DNA from: Candidatus Nomurabacteria bacterium | GTDB lineage: Bacteria > Patescibacteriota > Minisyncoccia > Phycocordibacterales > SBAW01 | DNA: 64,000 bases | Assembly (NCBI GenBank): GCA_943348815.1 | Contig: CALQYT010000001.1 | Location: 92,994 to 156,993, forward strand | Reading direction: 5' to 3' | Shown: positions 13,918 to 24,044 of the stretch, in pieces | How the letters are laid out: each line of letters starts with the position of its first letter | Position numbering within the stretch: position 1 is the stretch's first letter | The notes under the pieces: model-generated | What the model saw: only the letters and a program-made list of their open reading frames with translations | What the model was told of the DNA's origin: nothing | The model's database searches: none | Translations under genes and position numbers: made by a program

Positions 13918-14020
13918 AAATCCTCCTCCCTGCGGAGAAAGTTTTTTAGAGAGGCTTTACTGATCCTCTTACCCCCTATTATACTCCCCTATTAGGTTTT
14001 GTCAAGCCCCCTACTCCACC

Positions 14021-14075
14021 ACCACAACCGATGTTTGAGGCGATGTGGATGATTAGCAAGCCGGTTGAGACTACT
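14021..14075 (+). pseudogene. vestigial 3' end of a TrmB-like regulator gene (encodes ...PMFEAMWMISKPVETTQP*)
   Basis: Nucleotide and peptide similarity to the last about 50 nt of the 11989..12729 gene (HAMFEAMWRISAPALKE*), in the same stop-to-stop position relative to the following SBP gene. Confidence 0.5.
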
Positions 14076-15198
14076 CAACCGTGACGAACTGATTATCTTT
14101 TATGGTTTTTATTTCGAACTCAGCGCCACTAATTTGACCATTTGAATTAAAACTCAAATCTTCCACTCCAACACCAGGAGTATGTACTTTATTAAGGGCG
14201 GCTTTTAATTGCTCTCCCGTCGTTGCTCCGGTGTTGAGTGCCGCGAGGAGCATGAGCGCAGCATTATAGCCGGCCACTACTGAAGGCCCTGCAGGAGCTT
14301 GCCCGTATCTTTGTTTGAAGGCTTGAGCGAAGCTCTGGTAACTAGCGGTTTGGGATATATGAGGGAAGGAGTAAACCATTCCATCAAAAAAGTGCGGAAA
14401 TTTTTGTAGATTCTCTGGATTTTCAACACTGGTGACGCCAAACAGAAGGGTCTTTACCCCCAGATCTTTTAATTGCTGATTAAACGGTCCGATGGAAGAA
14501 GTGTCTTGTAAGTTAACAAATACCGCTTGCGGTTGGAGACTTTTAAGTTTAGTAATCAATGTGCGGAAGTCAGTCGTCCCGATAGGTACTTCTTCGTGAG
14601 AAACAACCGTCAGCCCTTTTGCAGTTGCGGTCGCTATAAAAATCTCTGTAGCTTTTTTGTTGAAAGCATCGAGGTCGGTTACGGTCGCAACGCGCGTTAG
14701 ATTATGGTTGAGTAGGTACTGAACCAGGGCGGCTGTCTCTGGTTGTTGGGGTAACCACGTTGAAAAAAGATAATCAAGTTTGCTTTTATTTTCTATAGTT
14801 TCCATCGCTCCAGATGGAGTGATGATGGGCACGTGCTTTTGCTGCGTAAGCGGGTAGGCACCCTGGAAGCTATCACCCCAGGTAGGGCCAATGATAGCTA
14901 GCACATGATCGACATTTACCAATTTTGTTATTGCGTTGACTGTACCTTCCCCGGTTGATTTTGTGTCTTCAGTGATAACTTGAACCTGGAGAGCGCCTTT
15001 CGCGTTGAATTCTTCCACGGCGAGCTGGATTGCTTCTCGTTCCCCTTCTCCCCATGCAGAGCCGTATCCAGTAAGTCCCAAAGCGGCTCCTATTTTGATT
15101 GCCCCGCTAGTGTTCAGGCTATGTTTTTGATAAGCGTATATGCCTACGCCTATCACCACTAGCACTCCTAGGCCGATCCACCAAGCAGCTTTATTCAT
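14071..15198 (-). CDS. LivK-type substrate-binding protein, TM-anchored
   Basis: MNKAAWWIGLGVLVVIGVGIYAY; IKIGAALGLTGYGSAWGEGE; AIIGPTWGDS. Close paralog of 12730..13917. Confidence 0.8.
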   Translation of the reverse strand: MNKAAWWIGLGVLVVIGVGIYAYQKHSLNTSGAIKIGAALGLTGYGSAWGEGEREAIQLAVEEFNAKGALQVQVITEDTKSTGEGTVNAITKLVNVDHVLAIIGPTWGDSFQGAYPLTQQKHVPIITPSGAMETIENKSKLDYLFSTWLPQQPETAALVQYLLNHNLTRVATVTDLDAFNKKATEIFIATATAKGLTVVSHEEVPIGTTDFRTLITKLKSLQPQAVFVNLQDTSSIGPFNQQLKDLGVKTLLFGVTSVENPENLQKFPHFFDGMVYSFPHISQTASYQSFAQAFKQRYGQAPAGPSVVAGYNAALMLLAALNTGATTGEQLKAALNKVHTPGVGVEDLSFNSNGQISGAEFEIKTIKDNQFVTVE

Positions 15199-15239
15199 GC
15201 CGCAAGAATAACACTCAGTTATAGTGAGAGCAATCGTAT

Positions 15240-16364
15240 TTATTTAACCGGAACTGAAATAAAGTTTTGAATTTTTGCGATCGACGGCTGCACGTTGGTG
15301 ATGTCAGCGTCGTTGGCGTCGAAACGATACGTACCCAAGATGCCGGTAAAGGCTTTAGGCATATGGTGGAGATAGTCTTTGAGTTTGGTCGGATCATCAC
15401 CCACCGCAAGGAGTGCATCTTTAAGAATATAAATTGCGTCGTAGCGAGAACCCACCGGCCACTCCATATCTGGTTGTTCGTAGCGGTGTATATACGCGGC
15501 AAAGACTTTTTGTTTGAGCGGACTTTCGACAAAGACCGGATCCGAAACATAAACCATACCTTGGGCTTGGGTAGAAAGTTGTACGTCTCTGCTCCCACCG
15601 AAGAAGTTGCCAACCAGTGGTCCTTGGTAACCTTGATCGCTCAATTGTTTTAGTATCGCAAGCCCCGTATCGCGTCCGTTGGGGTTGAGTACTACCACAT
15701 CGGGCTTGCTTGCTAGTAGTTTGGTGATTTGCGTGCGCATATCACGAGTCCCTTGCTCAAAAATTTCTTGAGCGACCACTGCGCCCCCACCTGCGGGTAC
15801 GTCTTGTACAAAAAAATGCTCAAGGTCAGAGGCGAACGCGCTGTGCTCGGTAATAATTGCAACCCGTTTGCCTTTTTTAAGCGCTTGGGTAGCCATAGCT
15901 TGTGCCATGTCGATATTGCTATAGGAGTTGCGGAAAATATAATCACCCGCATGGGTGATTGTGGATGCTGAAGCATATGAGGTCCATGCGATAACCTTGT
16001 GCGCTTGAGCGTACGGAGCAATAGATTGCATTTCTTGTGAGCAGGAGACGAACAAAATTTTTATCCCATCGACTTCTACGAGTTTTTTGGCGGCAGAAAG
16101 CCCGGTTGTGCCCTCGCAACGTCCGTCTTCGTACGCAACTTCGATACGTCGGCCGTTTATACCACCCGCAGTGTTGACCTCATCGACGGCGAGTTCCATG
16201 ACATTCTTTTCTATCACTCCCCACGCGGCACCATCTCCTGACAGGGGGCCGATAAGTCCGATTTTTATGGGAGCAACGGGGGTGGTTGGCGTTTGATGCA
16301 GTATGCTCACGACTGCTACAACCCCGGCTATAAGGAGTGCCCCGACAACATATTTGGTATTCAT
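15240..16364 (-). CDS. LivK-type substrate-binding protein, TM-anchored
   Basis: IKIGLIGPLSGDGAAWG; GGINGRRIEVAYEDGRCEG; LFVSCS. Confidence 0.8.
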   Translation of the reverse strand: MNTKYVVGALLIAGVVAVVSILHQTPTTPVAPIKIGLIGPLSGDGAAWGVIEKNVMELAVDEVNTAGGINGRRIEVAYEDGRCEGTTGLSAAKKLVEVDGIKILFVSCSQEMQSIAPYAQAHKVIAWTSYASASTITHAGDYIFRNSYSNIDMAQAMATQALKKGKRVAIITEHSAFASDLEHFFVQDVPAGGGAVVAQEIFEQGTRDMRTQITKLLASKPDVVVLNPNGRDTGLAILKQLSDQGYQGPLVGNFFGGSRDVQLSTQAQGMVYVSDPVFVESPLKQKVFAAYIHRYEQPDMEWPVGSRYDAIYILKDALLAVGDDPTKLKDYLHHMPKAFTGILGTYRFDANDADITNVQPSIAKIQNFISVPVK

Positions 16365-16479
16365 GAATTAACACATTAATCTAACCTGTCAATTGCTCAA
16401 GCATACTTTTGTAACAAAAATAATCTATAAATAGACTTAAAAACTAAAACTGTACACTTTTTTGTGATACAGTTTAGAA

Positions 16480-17229
16480 ATGCAGAAAGAACTCCAGCTG
16501 TTGGGTCTGACTGAGACAGAGGCTGAGGTCTACGAAGCTCTGGTAAACCATGGTCCCTGTAAGGCGGGGGTTTTGATCAATAAATTGAACCTGCACCGCA
16601 CACTCGTCTATCGGGCGCTCGATTCCCTAGTCGCAAACGGCCATGTAACCAAAATAGTGCGCAATGGGGTGTGGCATTTTCAGATTTCGGATCCCGAAAA
16701 CTTCTTGATCAGTATGAATCGGCAAGAAACGGTCTTGGGGGAACTGACCAAACTTATTGCCGAGCGTCAGCACCGAGCCAGTTCGCAAATTGTCGTGTAC
16801 GAGGGACTTGCGAGCTACAAAAATTATTGGCTGCGTTCACTGGAGCGTTTGCCCGATGGCACCGTCGACTATATCGCCGGCGGCGAGATTGAAGTGTGGA
16901 CCAAACTGATGGGTAAACGCAAAGAAGAATATTTACGCCGGGTGCGACAAAAGAAAATGAGCTGGAAAAGTCTCTACCTCGATCCTCTGAGCGCGCACGA
17001 ACTAGCGTTGCTTAAAGAAGCGCGGGTACAAACCGAGTGTCGGGTGTGGGAGCCGGCTGACCCAAAGTTTTTTGGTAACTTTAATGTACTTGGGGACACC
17101 GTGATTTTGCAAACACCGGGTGAAAAAATGCCCCGCGTCATCGAGATGCGCGATGAGGCGCTCGTAAGAATGTTTCAGTCTTTGTTTGATCTGATGTGGG
17201 AGAAGGCAAAGCCGGTGGACCTTACGTGA
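16480..17229 (+). CDS. TrmB-like winged-helix transcriptional regulator
   Basis: LGLTETEAEVYEALVNHGPCKAGVLINKLNLHRTLVYRALDSLVANGHV; tail SLFDLMWEKA. Stop abuts the livM stop. Confidence 0.8.
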   Translation: MQKELQLLGLTETEAEVYEALVNHGPCKAGVLINKLNLHRTLVYRALDSLVANGHVTKIVRNGVWHFQISDPENFLISMNRQETVLGELTKLIAERQHRASSQIVVYEGLASYKNYWLRSLERLPDGTVDYIAGGEIEVWTKLMGKRKEEYLRRVRQKKMSWKSLYLDPLSAHELALLKEARVQTECRVWEPADPKFFGNFNVLGDTVILQTPGEKMPRVIEMRDEALVRMFQSLFDLMWEKAKPVDLT

Positions 17230-18102
17230 TCACATGCGGAAGGTTCCCATCAAGCCTTGCGGGCGGTAGAGCATAAGGAGAATGAGGATCAGGCCATAAA
17301 CCATCTGGCGCATTTGGGCGGCGACGTCTGGGGGGAAGCCGACGAAACGCAGCGCCTCGGGGAGCACGATGAGAAAGAGTGCGCCCATTACGGCTCCACG
17401 GCTAGAGCCAAGGCCGCCGAGAATTACAATCGAGAGCAAGAAGATCGATTCGTTGAGCGAGAAGGACGACGGATCGATAAAGGTGATGTACGAGGCAAAT
17501 AGTGCACCCGCTATGGCCGCAAGTGATGCGGAGATAACAAACGTAACCAATTTGTAATACGACGTAGCGTAGCCAAAAACTGATATTGCTTCTTCGTCTT
17601 CGCGCAGCGCCTTGAGTACGCGACCAAAAGATGATTTGGTAATAAAGGTTGAGATCCCATACACGAGCGCTAAAAATACGGCTGCAAGAATAAGAAAAGT
17701 AAGATTTTCGGAAAAAGTAAATCCAAACAGTGCGGGGCGTGCGATACCCGGGATGCCCAAGGGGCCGTGCGTTACATCTTGCCAGTTGAGCATGATGCTC
17801 CAAACAATGACGTTGAAACCAAACGAGCCAAGGGCGTAGAAGTCGCCCCTAAAGCGCGAAAGCACGAGGCCGATCAGCAAAGATCCAAACGCGGAAATGA
17901 TGATACCCCCCAGCAGCGCCAAAAAGAAGTTAATGTCGTAGTTGGTAATAAGTAGCGCTGCGCCGTACGCTCCCATACCGTAGAAAGCCGCCTGCGTGAC
18001 ATTAAGCAACCCCGCCTCCCCTATCACCAAGTTGAGCGAGAGGCCCAAGATGCCGTAGATGCAGACAAGGATCGCGATATGTATTAGGTATTCCATAATC
18101 AA
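17230..18102 (-). CDS. livM: branched-chain amino acid ABC transporter permease LivM (ORF track start is TTG; ATG MEYLIHIA about 6 nt inside)
   Basis: Multi-TM permease with the LivM-type conserved block ...VGFPPDVAAQ...RPQGL. Confidence 0.8.
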   Translation of the reverse strand: MIMEYLIHIAILVCIYGILGLSLNLVIGEAGLLNVTQAAFYGMGAYGAALLITNYDINFFLALLGGIIISAFGSLLIGLVLSRFRGDFYALGSFGFNVIVWSIMLNWQDVTHGPLGIPGIARPALFGFTFSENLTFLILAAVFLALVYGISTFITKSSFGRVLKALREDEEAISVFGYATSYYKLVTFVISASLAAIAGALFASYITFIDPSSFSLNESIFLLSIVILGGLGSSRGAVMGALFLIVLPEALRFVGFPPDVAAQMRQMVYGLILILLMLYRPQGLMGTFRM

Positions 18103-18104
18103 TT

Positions 18105-18135
18105 AAGCACGAAGCACGAAGTTCGAAATCCGAAA
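18105..18135. repeat. left inverted-repeat arm flanking the four-helix-bundle gene cassette
   Basis: AAGCACGAAGCACGAAGTTCGAAATCCGAAA. Its reverse complement matches the right arm (TTTCGGATTTCG.., GTGCTTCG) plus an AAATTTTAAA/TTTAAAATTT pair. Confidence 0.6.
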
Positions 18136-18169
18136 CAATTTCTAAGCACCAAATTTAAAATTTTAAACG

Positions 18170-18541
18170 TCATACTTCAGACTTTCTCATTATGGCACTC
18201 AATATCATCATAAGCTCGGTCGCTTCTTGTAAGAGTTTTTTCCGAGTATGGTCTAATTCCTCTACTGTGCCCGTGTCTAAAAGATCAAGCCAGTACTTGC
18301 TTTCTTTGGCTTCTTTTCGGGCAATACGTACCCTGAGTAAAAAATCTTTTTTGCTCAATGATTCGTTCGCTTCTATATAGTTTGCGCCGACCGATCCTGA
18401 TGACCTAACGAGCTGTTTTGTATCTTCAAAGTTTGCTTGATTTTTTGGAAGCTCTTTCACAAACGAGCGTACTTCCCTTGCAAAGGCGCGCGTCCTGTCT
18501 TCCAAATCGTATTGTTTTTTAATTGGTGCTTTTGTTTCCAT
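18170..18541 (-). CDS. four-helix-bundle protein of the 23S rRNA intervening-sequence protein family (PF05635/TIGR02436-like)
   Basis: SGSVGANYIEANES and FLLRVRIARKEAKESKYWLDLL match the family's hallmark helices. 123 aa. Confidence 0.7.
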   Translation of the reverse strand: METKAPIKKQYDLEDRTRAFAREVRSFVKELPKNQANFEDTKQLVRSSGSVGANYIEANESLSKKDFLLRVRIARKEAKESKYWLDLLDTGTVEELDHTRKKLLQEATELMMILSAIMRKSEV

Positions 18542-18550
18542 TTAAAATTT

Positions 18551-18580
18551 ATTTCGGATTTCGTGCTTCGGATTTCGAAT
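18551..18580. repeat. right inverted-repeat arm flanking the four-helix-bundle gene cassette
   Basis: ATTTCGGATTTCGTGCTTCGGATTTCGAAT immediately after the livH stop. Pairs with 18105..18135. Confidence 0.6.
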
Positions 18581-19447
18581 TTACTTCCCAAGTATCCCTT
18601 TCGGACGAAAGAGGAGGAACAAAATGAGTACGAGGAAAGCTATCGCATCCTTCCACTCGCCACTAAATTGCCAAGCGCCCAAGTTCTCTACTAGCGCCAA
18701 GACAAACGCGCCGATGACACCACCCCACACGTTGCCTATGCCGCCGATGATTGCGGCGATGACGCCTTTAAGCAGGAGTGCCAAGCCCATCGTTGGTTGA
18801 ATGCCAGTGTCGAACCCAACCGATATGCCCGCAAGCCCCCCTATCATTGAGCCTACAAAAAACACGCCGCCCATTATGCGTTGCGCGTTGATACCCACAA
18901 TAGTTGCTACCTCTTCGTCGTCGGCAACAGCGCGTACTGCTTTGCCGACGCGCGTGTATTTAAGCACCACACCAAGCAACACCATGATGATCAGCCCGGC
19001 GGCGAGTATGAGCACCTGCGTTTGGGTAATCACGCCGCCCAGGATGGTGTAGGTTTGTTGCTCGGCAACGTAGCGTGAGAGAGTTTGGAATTGACTCGTG
19101 AAAAGTATCGCGATGCCTGCTTGAATAACGGTTAGCACCCCAAGCGCGGCTACCAATAGTACGGTGTTAGAGGCCTTGCGCGCACGCAGCGGGCGGTATA
19201 CTAGCTCGCTCACACCCCATCCCAAGATGCCCGCCATAATCATCCCAAAAATAATCGAGGGTATGAGTGGCAGACCCAATATTTTGTAGAGAAAAAACAC
19301 CGAATAACCGCCGACGGCGGTGAGTGCCCCGTACCCGAGGTCAAAAAACCGCGCGGTGGAGTAGATGAGATTAAACCCAAGCGCCAAGAGCGAGTAGATG
19401 GCGCCGGCAATAACGGCGTTCAGTAATATTTGGACTACGATGTCCAC
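18581..19447 (-). CDS. livH: branched-chain amino acid ABC transporter permease LivH
   Basis: LivH-type permease; 8 or more TM segments; conserved ...LGYGALTAVGGY...GIQPTMG... blocks. Confidence 0.8.
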   Translation of the reverse strand: MDIVVQILLNAVIAGAIYSLLALGFNLIYSTARFFDLGYGALTAVGGYSVFFLYKILGLPLIPSIIFGMIMAGILGWGVSELVYRPLRARKASNTVLLVAALGVLTVIQAGIAILFTSQFQTLSRYVAEQQTYTILGGVITQTQVLILAAGLIIMVLLGVVLKYTRVGKAVRAVADDEEVATIVGINAQRIMGGVFFVGSMIGGLAGISVGFDTGIQPTMGLALLLKGVIAAIIGGIGNVWGGVIGAFVLALVENLGAWQFSGEWKDAIAFLVLILFLLFRPKGILGK

Positions 19448-19460
19448 GGCTCTCAGTATA

Positions 19461-19495
19461 ACGCAAAACGCCCCAGCAAAAGCCGGGGCGTTTTG
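19461..19495 (-). terminator. hairpin terminator between SBP gene 19509..20660 and livH
   Basis: AAACGCCCC-N10-GGGGCGTTTT; the minus strand reads a stem followed by TTTTGCGTT. Confidence 0.5.
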
Positions 19496-19508
19496 AGGGA
19501 GATTTTTG

Positions 19509-20660
19509 CTATTGCACTAACACCGCGGTCCCATTTTTGACTTGGAATATGGAGTCGCCGCTCTGTCGCTCTCCATCCGGACCGATGGTGATCGAGCCCG
19601 ATGCACCTTCCCAATTTTTAACTGAGCTACGACCCCAGGCGGCTATTTTAGTGCCGTCATAGCCAACCGCTTCTATCGCCTCTTTTATAAGATAGAGAGA
19701 GTCGTACACCGCAGTTGAGTAGGTGGGGTATCCCATATCTTTGCCATACGCGGCTTTGTACGCATCGCGCAGCGCCACAAACTTTGGAGTGTCGTTGAGG
19801 TTAAAGTTTGCCCCAATATCACCCTCGAGAAAGTCTTTGAATTTAGTAAGAGTGGCCGGGTCACCGATCGTTACATCGTTGAGCATGAGTTTTGGCTTCC
19901 AGCCTAGTTTCTGCATCTGGTCAAAGATACGCTGTGCCGATGCGGCTGTCTGGACAGAGACAAGCACTGCGTCTGGTTTATCAGCTTTTAATTTAGCGAG
20001 TACCGAACGAAAGTCGCTTATATTACTTGCAAACTCCTCTTTAACAATGGTGCCGCCCAATTGTTTGTAGCGGGCCTCAAAGGCTTGGAAGATTCCAAGT
20101 GCATAGTCAGTTTGTTCCTGAATTACTGCCACCTTTTTCCAACCCTCTTTCGTGTATGCTTGGTCGGCGAGTACTACGCCTTGTGAAGAGTCGTTCGGAT
20201 AGTCGCGGAAGAAATAAGGACTCTTATTGATGAGCGCTGGGCTGGTTGCCGAGCCAGTGATGATGGCCACTTTTCCTGCTTCAGCGACCGGTACTGCGGC
20301 GAGCGTCTCGCCACTGCATGAACCGCCAAGTATCACCTGTACCTTATCAACGTTTACAAGTTTAGAAGCGGCGTTTGCTCCGTCGGGACCTTTGCATTTT
20401 GCGTCTTCGTAAATGATCTCTACTTGCTTGCCCGCTATACCACCATGGTCATTGATGTCTTTAGCTGCCAGTACAAGTACGTTTTTCTGTGGCTCACCGT
20501 AGTCGGCGGCGTCTCCAGTTAGGGCGCCGATGAAGCCGATTTTTATTGTGTCGGCACTTGCCCCCGGCGTTTTTTGCCCAAGCACCCACCAACCGCCGAG
20601 CACTACGACGAGCAAAACCACTATGCCCCAGATCCAACCCTTGTTTGAGCCTTCTTCCAT
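19509..20660 (-). CDS. LivK-type substrate-binding protein, TM-anchored
   Basis: IKIGFIGALTGDAADYGE; GGIAGKQVEIIYEDAKCKG; ILGGSCS. Confidence 0.8.
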   Translation of the reverse strand: MEEGSNKGWIWGIVVLLVVVLGGWWVLGQKTPGASADTIKIGFIGALTGDAADYGEPQKNVLVLAAKDINDHGGIAGKQVEIIYEDAKCKGPDGANAASKLVNVDKVQVILGGSCSGETLAAVPVAEAGKVAIITGSATSPALINKSPYFFRDYPNDSSQGVVLADQAYTKEGWKKVAVIQEQTDYALGIFQAFEARYKQLGGTIVKEEFASNISDFRSVLAKLKADKPDAVLVSVQTAASAQRIFDQMQKLGWKPKLMLNDVTIGDPATLTKFKDFLEGDIGANFNLNDTPKFVALRDAYKAAYGKDMGYPTYSTAVYDSLYLIKEAIEAVGYDGTKIAAWGRSSVKNWEGASGSITIGPDGERQSGDSIFQVKNGTAVLVQ

Positions 20661-20740
20661 ACAAAAATAAATTTAAAAATAAAAGGTGAACACTTCTCAA
20701 AACTTCTAACCCAAGCATATCCCGCTAGAAGTGCGTGTCA

Positions 20741-20773
20741 AATCAACAAAACCCCCGCACGAGGCGGGGGTTT
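20741..20773 (-). terminator. intrinsic terminator downstream of SBP gene 20786..21934
   Basis: Minus strand: CCCCCGCCTCGTGCGGGGG followed by TTTTGTTGATTT. Confidence 0.6.
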
Positions 20774-20785
20774 GGGAGGGGACTT

Positions 20786-21934
20786 TTACTCCACGTACGA
20801 CTCGGATTTGCCGTTTTTGACTACCCGGATCTCAAACTGGGCCGCCTTGAGGTCGCCGTTTTGCTCGAAGCTAATATTGGGGAAGGATACTCCGGTGGTG
20901 TAAGAGGTAGCCGCAATTGCTTGGCGCAATTTTTCAGGATTAGTCCCAGCCTGCTTCAGTGCGCTGGCAATAATCTCTACTCCGTCATACCCAAGCGGGG
21001 TGAGCAAGCCCGCGTCGACACCGGTCGCGGCTTTGACGCGCGCTTTAAAGTCGTCGGAGTTATTAATTTTGCCGATCGTAAAGAATATACCGTTGGTGTC
21101 GACCACCGAAGTAAATTCTTTGGTGTCAAAGTAGTCGCCCCCAATAAGCGGCACCGCAAGCCCGAGCTGTCGGGACTGTTTAGCTACCGCCACTCCCCCA
21201 CTTGCATGCAACGGGATGTAGACGAGCTCAGGGTTCGAAGTTTTTATTTTAGTAAGCGGCGTGCGCAGGTCGGTCGCGTTGACGTCTGCCCCTTCGCTGT
21301 CGGTGATGGTGCCGCCAAGCTCAGTAAAGCGCGCTGAAAAAGTTTTTTCCAAACCCGTGCCCCACTCGTCCTTTGCGTAGAGGATAGCTACCTTTTTCTT
21401 GCCCAAGGTATTGAAGACATACTCTGCGGCGAATTTGCCTTGCAACAGGTCAGAAGGATAGATACGGAAAATGTCGTCGCCTATATCGGTGAGCCCGGGC
21501 GCCGAAGCGATAATAAGCGTCGGTACGTGGTGTTGCTGCGCGAGCGGGAGCGCAGGCGCCGCCGAGGGCGAGCACACCGGACCAACGATGGCCGAAACCT
21601 GGTCGGCGTCGAGCAACTTGGTAAACGCGGTAGTGCCGCCGGTAGGAGAGCAAGCGTCATCTTCGTATACGACCTCAAGTTGGCGGCCGTTGATACCGCC
21701 TTGGTCGTTAATTTCTTTGACTGCCAACTCAATACCGCCACGCATCATTTCGCCATAGCTTGCGGCGTCGCCCGTAAGCGGCAGTGATGCGCCGATGCGG
21801 ATGGGCCCGGTTTGGGTATCGCCCTTACCAAACAGCGCCCAACCTCCTGCGACCAGCACAACGAGGATCATTAAAATACCTACTGTTTTTGTAGTACTCA
21901 TAAGTAAAATTATTAATTGACGAAATAAATCCAC
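20786..21934 (-). CDS. LivK-type substrate-binding protein, TM-anchored (true start probably MSTTKTVG near 21901)
   Basis: IRIGASLPLTGDAASYGE; GGINGRQLEVVYEDDACS; IVGPVCS. Confidence 0.8.
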   Translation of the reverse strand: MDLFRQLIILLMSTTKTVGILMILVVLVAGGWALFGKGDTQTGPIRIGASLPLTGDAASYGEMMRGGIELAVKEINDQGGINGRQLEVVYEDDACSPTGGTTAFTKLLDADQVSAIVGPVCSPSAAPALPLAQQHHVPTLIIASAPGLTDIGDDIFRIYPSDLLQGKFAAEYVFNTLGKKKVAILYAKDEWGTGLEKTFSARFTELGGTITDSEGADVNATDLRTPLTKIKTSNPELVYIPLHASGGVAVAKQSRQLGLAVPLIGGDYFDTKEFTSVVDTNGIFFTIGKINNSDDFKARVKAATGVDAGLLTPLGYDGVEIIASALKQAGTNPEKLRQAIAATSYTTGVSFPNISFEQNGDLKAAQFEIRVVKNGKSESYVE

Positions 21935-22016
21935 AGCAATATAGCATATATAGCTTGTAAATCAAGCCCTTTTAGGTTAAACTGTCGGTACTTTTCCACA
22001 ACAGTCTGAAGAAACC

Positions 22017-22781
22017 ATGCTGCCGCCTCTTAAAAAAGCCCTAGAAGTTTTAGACCTTAGCGATAAGCAAGAGGCTGTCCTTGGCGTCCTGCTGGAGAAT
22101 GGCCCTCTGTTAGTCGCAACCATTGCGCGTGGGGCAAAACTCAATCGCACCACCGCTTACGACATAGTTAAAGAGCTCGTCGATCTTGGGCTGGTTTCGC
22201 ATACTAAAAAAGACGGGGCTACGCGGTATCAGGCGCTTGCCCCGGAGCTCCTCCCCTCTTATATAGAACATCGTCGCCAGGTGCTTGAGGAGAGTAAAAA
22301 ACAGATCGAAGAGTTGGTGCCGCAGCTCAAACTTTTGCGCGCTAAAGGCAAATCGCTCCCCAAGGTGCAATTTTTTGAGGGGCTCGAGGGAGTTAAGCAC
22401 GCCTACGAAGACGTGCTCGAGAGCAATAAAGAAAAGTTTTTGCGCGGCATTACCGACATGGGTTCGGTGTACAAGGAGTTCGACGCTACCTGGCTCGACT
22501 ACTACCTTACAAAGCGGACACGGCTTGGCATCCGCTGCACGGATTTAGTACCTGAGGGTGAAGCCGGCCGTCGCAGCAAGGGTGATGACGAAAAATATAT
22601 CCGTACAACCAAGTTTCTTCCGCCCGACTACGACCTGGGCGGCGATATCAGCATTTATGACGACCGAGTCGCGATTTTTTCTTACGCACACGAAAGCCCG
22701 GTCGCGGTCATCATCGAGGACCAAACTATCTCAGGTATGCTGAAGAAACTTTTTGATTTTATGGAGACGCACTGCAAGTAA
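22017..22781 (+). CDS. TrmB-like winged-helix transcriptional regulator
   Basis: LDLSDKQEAVLGVLLENGPLLVATIARGAKLNRTTAYDIVKELVDLGLV. Sigma70-like TTGACG-17-TATAGC lies upstream (21917..21945). Confidence 0.8.
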   Translation: MLPPLKKALEVLDLSDKQEAVLGVLLENGPLLVATIARGAKLNRTTAYDIVKELVDLGLVSHTKKDGATRYQALAPELLPSYIEHRRQVLEESKKQIEELVPQLKLLRAKGKSLPKVQFFEGLEGVKHAYEDVLESNKEKFLRGITDMGSVYKEFDATWLDYYLTKRTRLGIRCTDLVPEGEAGRRSKGDDEKYIRTTKFLPPDYDLGGDISIYDDRVAIFSYAHESPVAVIIEDQTISGMLKKLFDFMETHCK

Positions 22782-22782
22782 T

Positions 22783-23922
22783 TTAGATCGTATAAGCCTC
22801 GGATTTGCCGTTCTTGATCGTCTTGAGCACGTACTCTTTGATTGCGTCACCGTTGCTGTCCATCGTAAGGGAGCCAGCGGCACCGACACGATCTTTTACT
22901 TGATACAGACACGCTTTGACTTGGTCAGCAGTATCGCCGCACTTGCCTATGGTTTCGAAGAGTATCTTTGCGGCGTCATAGGCTGAAGCTAAGTACACCG
23001 GAGGTGTGGTAGGATCTACCATTTTGTAGTGCGCAATGTAGCTGTCGAAGAAAGCTTTTGCCGCAGGAGCGTTTTGGTCAAAGACGACCTCGGTATAGAC
23101 AACGTTGTCGGCGAGGCCGGTTTTGAGTATCGAGGGGGTCGTTATAAGTTCGTTAGAGTATTTTGGTAAGGTGATACCGGCATTTTTTATTTGTTGAAGC
23201 AAAGCCTGTCCGTCTACCGGTCCACCCGGTATTAAGTAGAGAGCTTCGGCACCCGACACTTTGATTTTGGCGAGTAGTGTACGGAAGTCTTTGTTGTCGG
23301 TGACATAGCCCTCGGAGGCGACCACGTCTCCGCCTAGACCCTTATAAGTGGTTTCAAATACATTCCGCAATGCTTGTGCGTATTCATTTCGTACGGATAT
23401 AACGGCTACTTTTTTGTATCCGCGTTCTTTCATTGCTTGGGCGGCCTTGTTGCCCGAGGTCGCGTCAGAAGCAAAGCTACGGAAGACGTAGTCGCCTGCC
23501 CCTGTAATGTCGGGGCTACTCGATATCCCCGAAAAAAGTATGACGTGATTTTTTTCGGCAATGGGTGCTGCGGCAAGTGTTTCGCCACTGCATACTCCAC
23601 CCAGGATATAGTTGACCCCGTCGACGTTGATAAGTTTTTGTGCTGCGTCGGCGGCGGCTTTGTCGCACTGACCGTCTTCGTAAATCACTTCGACTTGGCG
23701 GCCGTTAATGCCGCCGGCGTCGTTGGTTTCTTGGACTGCCAGCATAACGGTTTGACGGACCGATTCCCCAAACGACCCAAGGTCACCGGTGAGCGGCGCA
23801 ATAAACCCAACTTTAATAGGGCCGGTTTCGGTCGGAGTCGTTTTTCCTTGCAAGAAGTACCACCCACCCACAACCACTACCAGCACGATGAGACCCAAAA
23901 TCCACTTAGCGGTGCTATTCAT
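22783..23922 (-). CDS. LivK-type substrate-binding protein, TM-anchored
   Basis: IKVGFIAPLTGDLGSFGE; GGINGRQVEVIYEDGQCD; ILGGVCSGET. Alignable with E. coli LivJ along the full length. Confidence 0.85.
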   Translation of the reverse strand: MNSTAKWILGLIVLVVVVGGWYFLQGKTTPTETGPIKVGFIAPLTGDLGSFGESVRQTVMLAVQETNDAGGINGRQVEVIYEDGQCDKAAADAAQKLINVDGVNYILGGVCSGETLAAAPIAEKNHVILFSGISSSPDITGAGDYVFRSFASDATSGNKAAQAMKERGYKKVAVISVRNEYAQALRNVFETTYKGLGGDVVASEGYVTDNKDFRTLLAKIKVSGAEALYLIPGGPVDGQALLQQIKNAGITLPKYSNELITTPSILKTGLADNVVYTEVVFDQNAPAAKAFFDSYIAHYKMVDPTTPPVYLASAYDAAKILFETIGKCGDTADQVKACLYQVKDRVGAAGSLTMDSNGDAIKEYVLKTIKNGKSEAYTI

Positions 23923-24044
23923 ATAAACAAAAAATAATAGAAAATAATAAGTTGACTAAATTAATCCACAGAAAAGTATATAGTTTGCTTGACAAAAGTC
24001 AAGTTTATTGAAATATTGTTGATGTAACTCAACAACATTAATTT

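Follow-up and report, generated by a model that had tools for sequence, protein, structure and literature searches.

What is a gene related to those found in the intervening sequences (IVSs) of ribosomal RNA (rRNA) doing between two permease genes, and how did it come to be there? This question is raised by a locus within a 64,000-nucleotide stretch of contig CALQYT010000001.1 from a Candidatus Nomurabacteria bacterium (the whole of which is termed here the window), where a gene for a 123-residue four-helix-bundle (4HB) protein (18170..18541, on the minus strand, as are its host genes) separates the genes for a LivH-like ABC permease (18581..19447) and a LivM-like ABC permease (17230..18096). 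The analysis presented here suggests that this 4HB gene, which is of the S23p/Avd-like kind, and its flanks, which form an inverted repeat of 7-nt units, probably constitute an IVS-type selfish gene cassette. Both permeases are BPD_transp_2 proteins (PF02653, E=8e-37 for the upstream and E=1.5e-46 for the downstream gene), and in NCBIfam they match LivH and LivM best; because each scores below the equivalog cutoff, 'livH' and 'livM' are used here as approximate names.

A four-helix-bundle gene within inverted heptamer arrays

The 123-residue open reading frame (ORF), which contains GSVGANYIEANES and FLLRVRIARKEAKESKYWL, matches both PF05635 (E=3.3e-16; 59.9 bits, cutoff 33.8) and TIGR02436 (E=1.6e-22; 79.8 bits, cutoff 24), and its closest relative of solved structure is PDB 2RLD, a Bacteroides protein of the 'S23 ribosomal protein family' (phmmer E=1.5e-13). 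An AlphaFold2 (AF2) monomer model built with 32 homologues has a pLDDT of 91.9 and predicts helices at residues 14-29, 35-59, 64-87 and 94-122; submitted to Foldseek, it retrieves 2RLD first (TM 0.74-0.84), then 2GSC and, more weakly, Avd, a protein of diversity-generating retroelements (DGRs). Both 2RLD and 2GSC were deposited with five chains. The conserved motif of the PF05635 family, (G)xxRxxxSxxxNxxE (PMC3936711), is present as VR46-SSG-S50-VGA-N54-YI-E57, without the leading G at the stated spacing, and in an alignment of homologues (A2) its R, S, N and E show little or no variation. The above-cutoff matches to both families and the 2RLD-like model bear out an earlier note on this DNA, made from the letters alone, which had taken the gene to be a 4HB gene of IVS type.

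The whole cassette occupies about 484 nt (18097-18580), and the livH stop codon (TAA, 18583-18581) immediately adjoins it. Read in the sense of the mRNA, it begins with a 5' arm (18551..18580) made up of the four heptamers ATTCGAA, ATCCGAA, GCACGAA and ATCCGAA (plus AT), which is followed by an inner leader, AAATTTTAA (18542..18550), that abuts the 4HB ATG. Beyond the gene come an inner segment of the 3' untranslated region (UTR), CGTTTAAAATTTTAAATTTGGTGCTTAGAAATTG (18136..18169), which is complementary to the leader and the start-codon region; a 3' arm (18107..18135) of the inverted heptamers TTTCGGA, TTTCGAA, CTTCGTG and CTTCGTG (plus C); and an A/T-rich spacer, TTAATTGATT (18097..18106), that leads up to the livM ATG. 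The conserved livM start is this ATG at 18096 (MEYLIH) and not the TTG at 18102, the former being kept in 80 relatives. Four contigs, which come from three or more different samples, have the same arrangement, and hence it is not an assembly artefact.

The two non-coding flanks (39 nt from the livH stop to the 4HB ATG and 73 nt from the 4HB stop to the livM ATG) are mostly complementary to each other. A repeat search pairs 18101-18145 with 18542-18586, arms of 45 nt that are 73% complementary overall and 90% complementary over a 20-nt core, and TRF independently detects a period of 7 in each arm and no other comparable heptamer array in the window. When the RNA of 18090-18600 (minus strand, 511 nt) is folded, the flanks pair with each other (z=-3.1; 0/100 shuffles), and the predicted duplex between the 5' UTR and the 3' UTR has an energy of -32.2 kcal/mol, versus -12.0 +/- 3.1 with a shuffled 3' UTR (0/2000); 3.8% of equally spaced random segments of the window, which is more GC-rich, match this strength. 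In a folded mini-construct there are 45 inter-arm pairs, arranged as a near-perfect helix of ~17 bp plus flanking helices. The last livH codons and stop fall within the basal helix, and the AUG of the 4HB gene within the apical one; since the inner leader pairs with 18158-18167 (a 10-nt inverted repeat at 100%), the 4HB start-codon region lies inside the predicted stem. No Rfam family matches the arms, either at the gathering threshold or at E<=10. The repeat search and the fold of the flanks thus agree with the earlier description of imperfect inverted repeats able to form a long stem, and the permease genes on both flanks confirm that this element sits in an mRNA operon rather than in rRNA.

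Filled and empty permease junctions

GTDB species genomes were scanned with the LivM-like protein, which yielded 80 Patescibacteria loci at 61-81% identity (Taylorbacteria, Kaiserbacteria, Paceibacteria and others), 73 of which hold both permease genes. At 36 of these 73 loci the gap between livH and livM is 0-15 nt, and at 17 of the 36 it is exactly TAA/TAG/TGA-N-ATG (i.e., 1 nt); at eight loci it is 22-65 nt, at four it holds an ORF-less insert of 112-304 nt, at nine it holds a 4HB gene, and at 16 it holds other genes (binding proteins, TrmB plus a binding protein, an NYN protein, a PemK-like toxin, or an RHH and RelE-like pair). From these gap classes it follows that abutting permeases are the ancestral state and that the cassette is derived. 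The comparison shows, moreover, that the cassette was inserted into an ancestral TAA-N-ATG junction before the split from the nearest sequenced relative (L011). The empty TAA-N-ATG sites place the insertion exactly at the stop/start junction, as had been claimed, and they stand in relatives where an old resident gene would instead have been found at this site without repeats.

In a neighbor-joining tree of LivM, occupied sites are scattered among empty ones: the window and L011 make up a clade, L032 has the empty L085 as its sister, and L023 branches among the almost identical L014 and L084, both with empty sites. Moreover, the junction is occupied by two subfamilies of 4HB genes: subfamily A, with a GANYIEANES motif (the window, L011, L012, L032, L054, L065 and L077), and a divergent subfamily B, with an SNIAEGFGR motif (L023, L047 and L066; PF05635 E=1e-31 to 1e-37), whose cassettes have arms of GAATRAG, AATTACG or ATTTATG units. 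On the protein tree the subfamily-A occupants of the junction fall into three groups, each of which also includes cassettes from non-liv contexts, which means that there were several independent arrivals at the junction.

Once in place, the cassette has been kept. Between the window and L011 the 4HB gene has a dN of 0.126, with dS saturated, as compared with a dN of 0.185 for livH and 0.161 for livM, and the arms are about 90-97% identical; hence the ORF and the arms are both maintained in place, where they are under purifying selection. As for the mobility that the earlier note had suggested, its support is indirect and consists of the patchy occupancy, the two subfamilies at a single site and, as described below, the same arms at other sites and ORF-less derivatives.

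Several other occupants of the junction deserve mention in their own right. These include selfish-looking small genes: an RHH and RelE/YafQ-like pair (L061 1973-2459), a PemK/MazF-like toxin gene (L051 990-1382) and a gene for an NYN-domain protein (L048 1907-2428). The ORF-less junction inserts, which may be decayed or miniature elements, comprise a hairpin of ATCCGCG/CGCGGAT units (L076 1031-1142), an insert with TGTCATTCCC...GGGAATGACA ends (L069 2324-2500), one with AATTACG units as in the arms of the L047 cassette (L070 2197-2500) and a fourth in L046 (2308-2500). At three loci (L019 2459-2500, L020 2446-2500 and L041 2460-2500) solo heptamer arrays of 41-55 nt, with units AATTTCT, AATTTTC and ACTTTCN, lie directly before the livM ATG and resemble TAACTGA direct repeats (PMC4679880); relative to its close relative L033, L019 contains a 38-nt heptamer insert flanked by TA...TA. 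Apparent inserts inside livM at some loci were rejected, the long matches there being due to LivM cross-matching the adjacent LivH.

The cassette family beyond the permease operon

The cassette family is very large and occurs across at least five phyla, between co-oriented genes. Databases hold more than 8000 relatives of the protein, the best 120 matches being 63-83% identical to it, and the named sources of close relatives include Berkelbacteria, Paceibacterota, Moranbacteria, Planctomicrobium and Sedimentisphaerales. On a Berkelbacteria contig the 4HB gene lies between the gene for a 623-residue protein (no Pfam match) and an exosortase-like gene, and in a complete Planctomicrobium genome it lies between the genes for CTP synthase and MetRS; in both cases it is bracketed by arms of the same type. 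A further 80 metagenome loci (58-73% identity), none of them in a liv context, conform to the consensus stop-(T)AA-[NNNCGAA]x3-5-ACAAATTCAA-ATG ... stop-N20-50-TTGT-[TTCGNNN]x3-5-TT(A), and of 66 elements with both flanks 48 can be aligned in a single 7-nt register (alignment A1, which includes the window), with termini of consensus TAAATYCGAA...TTCGRATTTA. As for rRNA genes, where the earlier note had advised searching for the arms, the window contains none, and none of 40 homologous metagenome loci scanned lies in rRNA, tRNAs alone being found.

At these loci a crude ORF call puts the upstream gene in the same orientation as the 4HB gene in 55/63 cases and the downstream gene in 41/57. The distance from the upstream stop to the 4HB ATG has a mode of 38-50 nt, so that the arm fills the entire spacer; about 10 nt separate the end of the 5' arm from the 4HB ATG, and 5-30 nt separate that of the 3' arm from the start of the downstream gene. 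Cognate flanks form a duplex of -42.9 kcal/mol on average, versus -26.6 for shuffled flanks, and non-cognate pairs of arms fold at -39.1; because non-cognate arms, being conserved in sequence, fold almost as well as cognate ones, duplex energy is not a test of specificity.

A more informative signal comes from the 48-element alignment, in which 84% of stem cells pair and 18/32 pairs exhibit double changes, a result that none of 500 shuffles reaches. This covariation between arms is restricted to the heptamer core: where CGAA gives way to CTAA, CCAA or ACAA, every unit in the two arms changes with it (z=8.1), and such switches have occurred more than once on the protein tree. The triplets between the CGAA cores of these elements are drawn from a small recurring set (ATC, ATT, GCA, TAT, ACT, ATA and their complements); both arms draw on this set, though in orders that do not correspond, as if whole units had been shuffled or duplicated.

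Near full copies there also occur ORF-less 'minis' of 150-170 nt (120-190 nt in the examples that follow) that keep the two arms, the ATG and some of the 3' trailer; examples with CGAAA arms and a short remnant of the interior are L104 1380-1500, L110 810-1000, L118 497-680, L125 185-345 and L130 862-1040. These look like deletion derivatives of the full cassette. On other contigs stretches of 2-3 kb contain several arms or minis, and in L104 a tRNA gene directly follows the cassette.

Heptamer arms are likewise found in more distant branches of the family. All six 4HB genes examined from Nostoc, Aulosira, Dolichospermum and Anabaena plasmids and from Chondrinema (L171, 1446-2015; L172, 1272-1940; L173; L174; L175; L176) have inverted heptamer arms whose sequences are unrelated to those above, the units being GGAAGTC, CAAAATT, CGTAATT plus TGGAATT, AAAAGTR, and CAGTNNN. 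The Chondrinema gene (L172) lies between the genes for an RND adaptor and an RND permease, and, read on the opposite strand, its arms (CAGTTAA/CAGTGAT) belong to the TAACTGA type. Heptamer direct repeats that end 1 nt before start codons abound in Beggiatoaceae, cyanobacteria and Bacteroidetes; the paper that reports them proposes a regulatory role and draws no link to PF05635 (PMC4679880). They share with the cassette arms a tandem 7-nt unit and an intergenic position immediately upstream of start codons; they differ in that they are presented there as direct repeats, and not as inverted arrays on either side of a 4HB gene. Genes annotated as 23S_rRNA_IVP have also been reported between cas genes, as between cmr3 and cmr2 in Pleurocapsa (PMC3936711). 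Among the six, the gene in L174 lies between cas2 and cas1, on the opposite strand; that in L171 adjoins XisH/XisI and that in L173 adjoins XisI, and in both of the latter the annotated GTG start is downstream of an ATG positioned like the starts of other cassettes.

A proposed mechanism and its rivals

How might such a cassette persist within a host operon? A scan of 16400-21000 (minus strand) finds a single promoter-like site (20741-20714), upstream of the gene for a solute-binding protein (SBP; 19509-20660), which stands first in the gene order, and no promoter-like or terminator-like site within the cassette; because the cassette thus has neither a promoter nor a terminator of its own, it is presumably co-transcribed as part of an SBP-livH-4HB-livM message. 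In this message the arms would pair to form an interrupted stem of roughly 45 bp. The livH stop would lie at the base of this stem and the livM start some 10 nt farther on, which would bring the two together, and the stem would enclose and bury the 4HB start codon (AUG). Such a stem is likely to be a substrate for RNase III, by analogy with the IVSs of 23S rRNA and with Correia/ERIC repeats; alternatively, translation of livH might melt it. Either cutting, which would split the livHM transcript as the earlier note had supposed it might, or melting would limit polarity on livM and would gate translation of the 4HB gene. The heptamer units, for their part, are likely to be sequence-specific recognition sites for whatever factor moves or copies the element, because all units of both arms share one core and change together, and the 4HB protein encoded by the cassette, if pentameric, would be the obvious candidate for reading them.

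Several features of this proposal recall known systems. The rRNA IVSs (of Coxiella burnetii, Leptospira, Brucella, Xanthomonas and the Candidate Phyla Radiation (CPR)) resemble the cassette in that both carry S23p/PF05635 genes, are similar in size (about 430-480 nt), encode no mobility gene, and hold the ORF in the loop of a terminal-inverted-repeat hairpin with tandem heptamers immediately upstream of it. In the Coxiella 23S IVS there is a 28-bp terminal stem, GACAGAT heptamers lie directly upstream of the S23p ORF, and RNase III carries out the excision (PMC4990558); CPR rRNA insertions likewise carry 23S_rRNA_IVP ORFs (10.1101/2024.02.27.582315). The two differ in site (an operon stop/start junction for the cassette versus helix 25/45 of 23S rRNA), in that excision by RNase III is shown for rRNA IVSs and supposed by analogy for the cassette, and in that the Coxiella ORF is decaying whereas the cassette ORF is under purifying selection. 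The Correia/nemis elements of Neisseria and the ERIC/IRU elements of Enterobacteria and Yersinia are inverted-repeat elements within transcribed intergenic spacers that are co-transcribed with host genes, that have A/T-rich (TA) targets, and whose RNA hairpins can be cut by RNase III and alter the expression of flanking cistrons; they are non-coding and 100-150 bp long, and their arms are not heptamer arrays. The cassette shares their terminal inverted repeats but carries a conserved 123-residue ORF.

A number of observations weigh against the selfish-cassette explanation or against parts of it. The Pfam matches of the genes within +/-10 kb of the locus include no transposase, integrase or reverse transcriptase (RT); no consistent target-site duplication was found across elements; the window holds no second copy of the gene or of the arm motif; and collections of phages, plasmids and viral contigs, the possible vectors, contain either no homologues or ones at most 42% identical. 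(PADLOC and PHROGs searches likewise returned nothing meaningful.) Cleavage by RNase III is argued by analogy, and a gene retained vertically for so long under purifying selection could just as well be one that now serves its host. Because the junction also accepts unrelated genes (for SBPs, TrmB, toxin-antitoxin pairs and the NYN protein), it may be permissive rather than targeted. Finally, the triplets between the cores pair with their own partners no better than when shuffled (61% versus 62%), so that pairing along the full length is not what selection keeps, and there is no strand asymmetry (G·U versus A·C mismatches; sense -39.4 versus antisense -38.9 kcal/mol; p=0.61), so that this test cannot separate selection at the RNA level from selection at the DNA level. 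The innermost triplet alone gives a marginal pairing signal (z=2.3). Pairing does involve the inner 15-20 bp and the start-codon helix. The outer arms behave like arrays of a common recognition unit rather than like a stem preserved solely for its pairing, and overall the arms resemble arrays of recognition heptamers at least as much as a stem selected for pairing.

The lack of strand asymmetry also fits an element that acts as DNA, and it is possible, if short of probable, that it is a transposon resembling a miniature inverted-repeat transposable element (MITE), whose arms are the terminal inverted repeats for a transposase acting in trans, perhaps one that is IS630/mariner-like and targets TA. 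The 4HB gene would then be cargo or an accessory DNA-binding factor, and the RNA hairpin incidental; this reading overlaps with that of a selfish IVS-type cassette, from which it differs mainly in where the arms act. Arm pairing without strand asymmetry, covariation confined to the repeated core and concerted across units, the consensus termini, the TA...TA-flanked insert that distinguishes L019 from L033, and the minis, which recall pairs of autonomous elements and MITEs, all accord with it. Yet no transposase is linked to any cassette locus examined, and TA duplication is inconsistent: besides the TAA...TTA terminal consensus and the L019/L033 case, there are many elements without it. The arms, furthermore, are conserved in an old, vertically inherited copy, and the strong co-orientation is unexpected of a purely DNA-level element, unless imposed by selection for expression of the ORF. 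That the heptamer arrays have nothing to do with mobility and instead are modules of translation or mRNA control that tune initiation, one serving its own ORF and the inverted one serving the downstream gene or restoring coupling, seems unlikely: the abundance of heptamer direct repeats before start codons in other bacteria (PMC4679880), the solo arrays before livM and the placement of both arms close to start codons speak for such a role, but inverted copies with the same core, ORF-less minis and insertion polymorphism are left unexplained.

Two further possibilities concern the protein rather than its flanks. On strand, spacing, retention in L011 and purifying selection alone, the 4HB gene might pass for a resident accessory or regulatory subunit of a branched-chain amino-acid-type transporter; this is very improbable, being contradicted by the empty sites (the gene is missing from most orthologous operons, where the permeases abut), by homologues in unrelated operons and by a family that has no link to transport. 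Scarcely credible is an identity as the Avd accessory gene of a DGR. The fold is homologous, there is a family relation (PF05635/bAvd), and the Avd-related structures 4DWL and 8UB7 are among the structural matches to the model (PMC10053308), but the matches to Avd are weak (E about 0.1, 12% identity) in comparison with the strong ones to 2RLD and IVS-type proteins, and no gene within +/-10 kb matches an RT family in Pfam. Nor did a repeat search find, beyond the arms, a second copy of any part of the region that could represent a template/variable-repeat pair. No Avd gene is known to be bracketed by a hairpin. An integron cassette was also considered and rejected, inasmuch as the inverted repeat brackets the ORF, no compact attC lies downstream, and no integrase is nearby (+/-10 kb).

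Returning to the selfish cassette, a broader generalization may be framed, which we consider rather doubtful: that all PF05635 genes are the protein part of one mobile, heptamer-armed superfamily, in which a 4HB pentamer reads 3-5 inverted units at both ends, and that rRNA IVSs, operon cassettes, minis and at least some of the unexplained heptamer arrays (STRR, TAACTGA) are products or footprints of the same machinery. (Cyanobacterial STRR sequences are heptamer repeat arrays.) The arrangement 5'-(TCCGAAA)n...(TTTCGGA)n-3' is what would result from adding one and the same repeat to each 3' end of a linear intermediate. By analogy with its homologue Avd, a pentamer that binds RT and template RNA (PMC10053308), the 4HB protein might act together with a polymerase or RT in trans.

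Both the rRNA IVSs and the 4HB family were already known, and the origin, mobility and function of the IVSs and of the S23p/4HB protein have been a puzzle since the 1990s. A full-text literature search returned no description of hairpin- or heptamer-armed 4HB cassettes outside rRNA, of their minis, or of a link to heptanucleotide arrays. That the same package occurs at stop/start junctions across these phyla suggests that rRNA may be merely one of many landing sites, and the thousands of natural filled and empty sites, the concerted core variants and the cultured carriers, such as Planctomicrobium sp. SH661, Nostoc punctiforme and Chondrinema litorale, make the question testable. In addition, 23S_rRNA_IVP genes described as 'associated' with cas operons may be hitch-hiking insertions rather than functional partners, the cassettes may be where the enigmatic heptanucleotide arrays come from, and genome annotation is alerted to an insert that recurs between tightly coupled genes and separates them.

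No ABC ATPase gene adjoins the permeases within 14000-24000 of the window. This region (and likewise L001 1-20372) contains at least nine Peripla_BP_6 solute-binding genes interleaved with at least four genes for TrmB-family regulators, which are divergently oriented and have the single permease pair in their midst.

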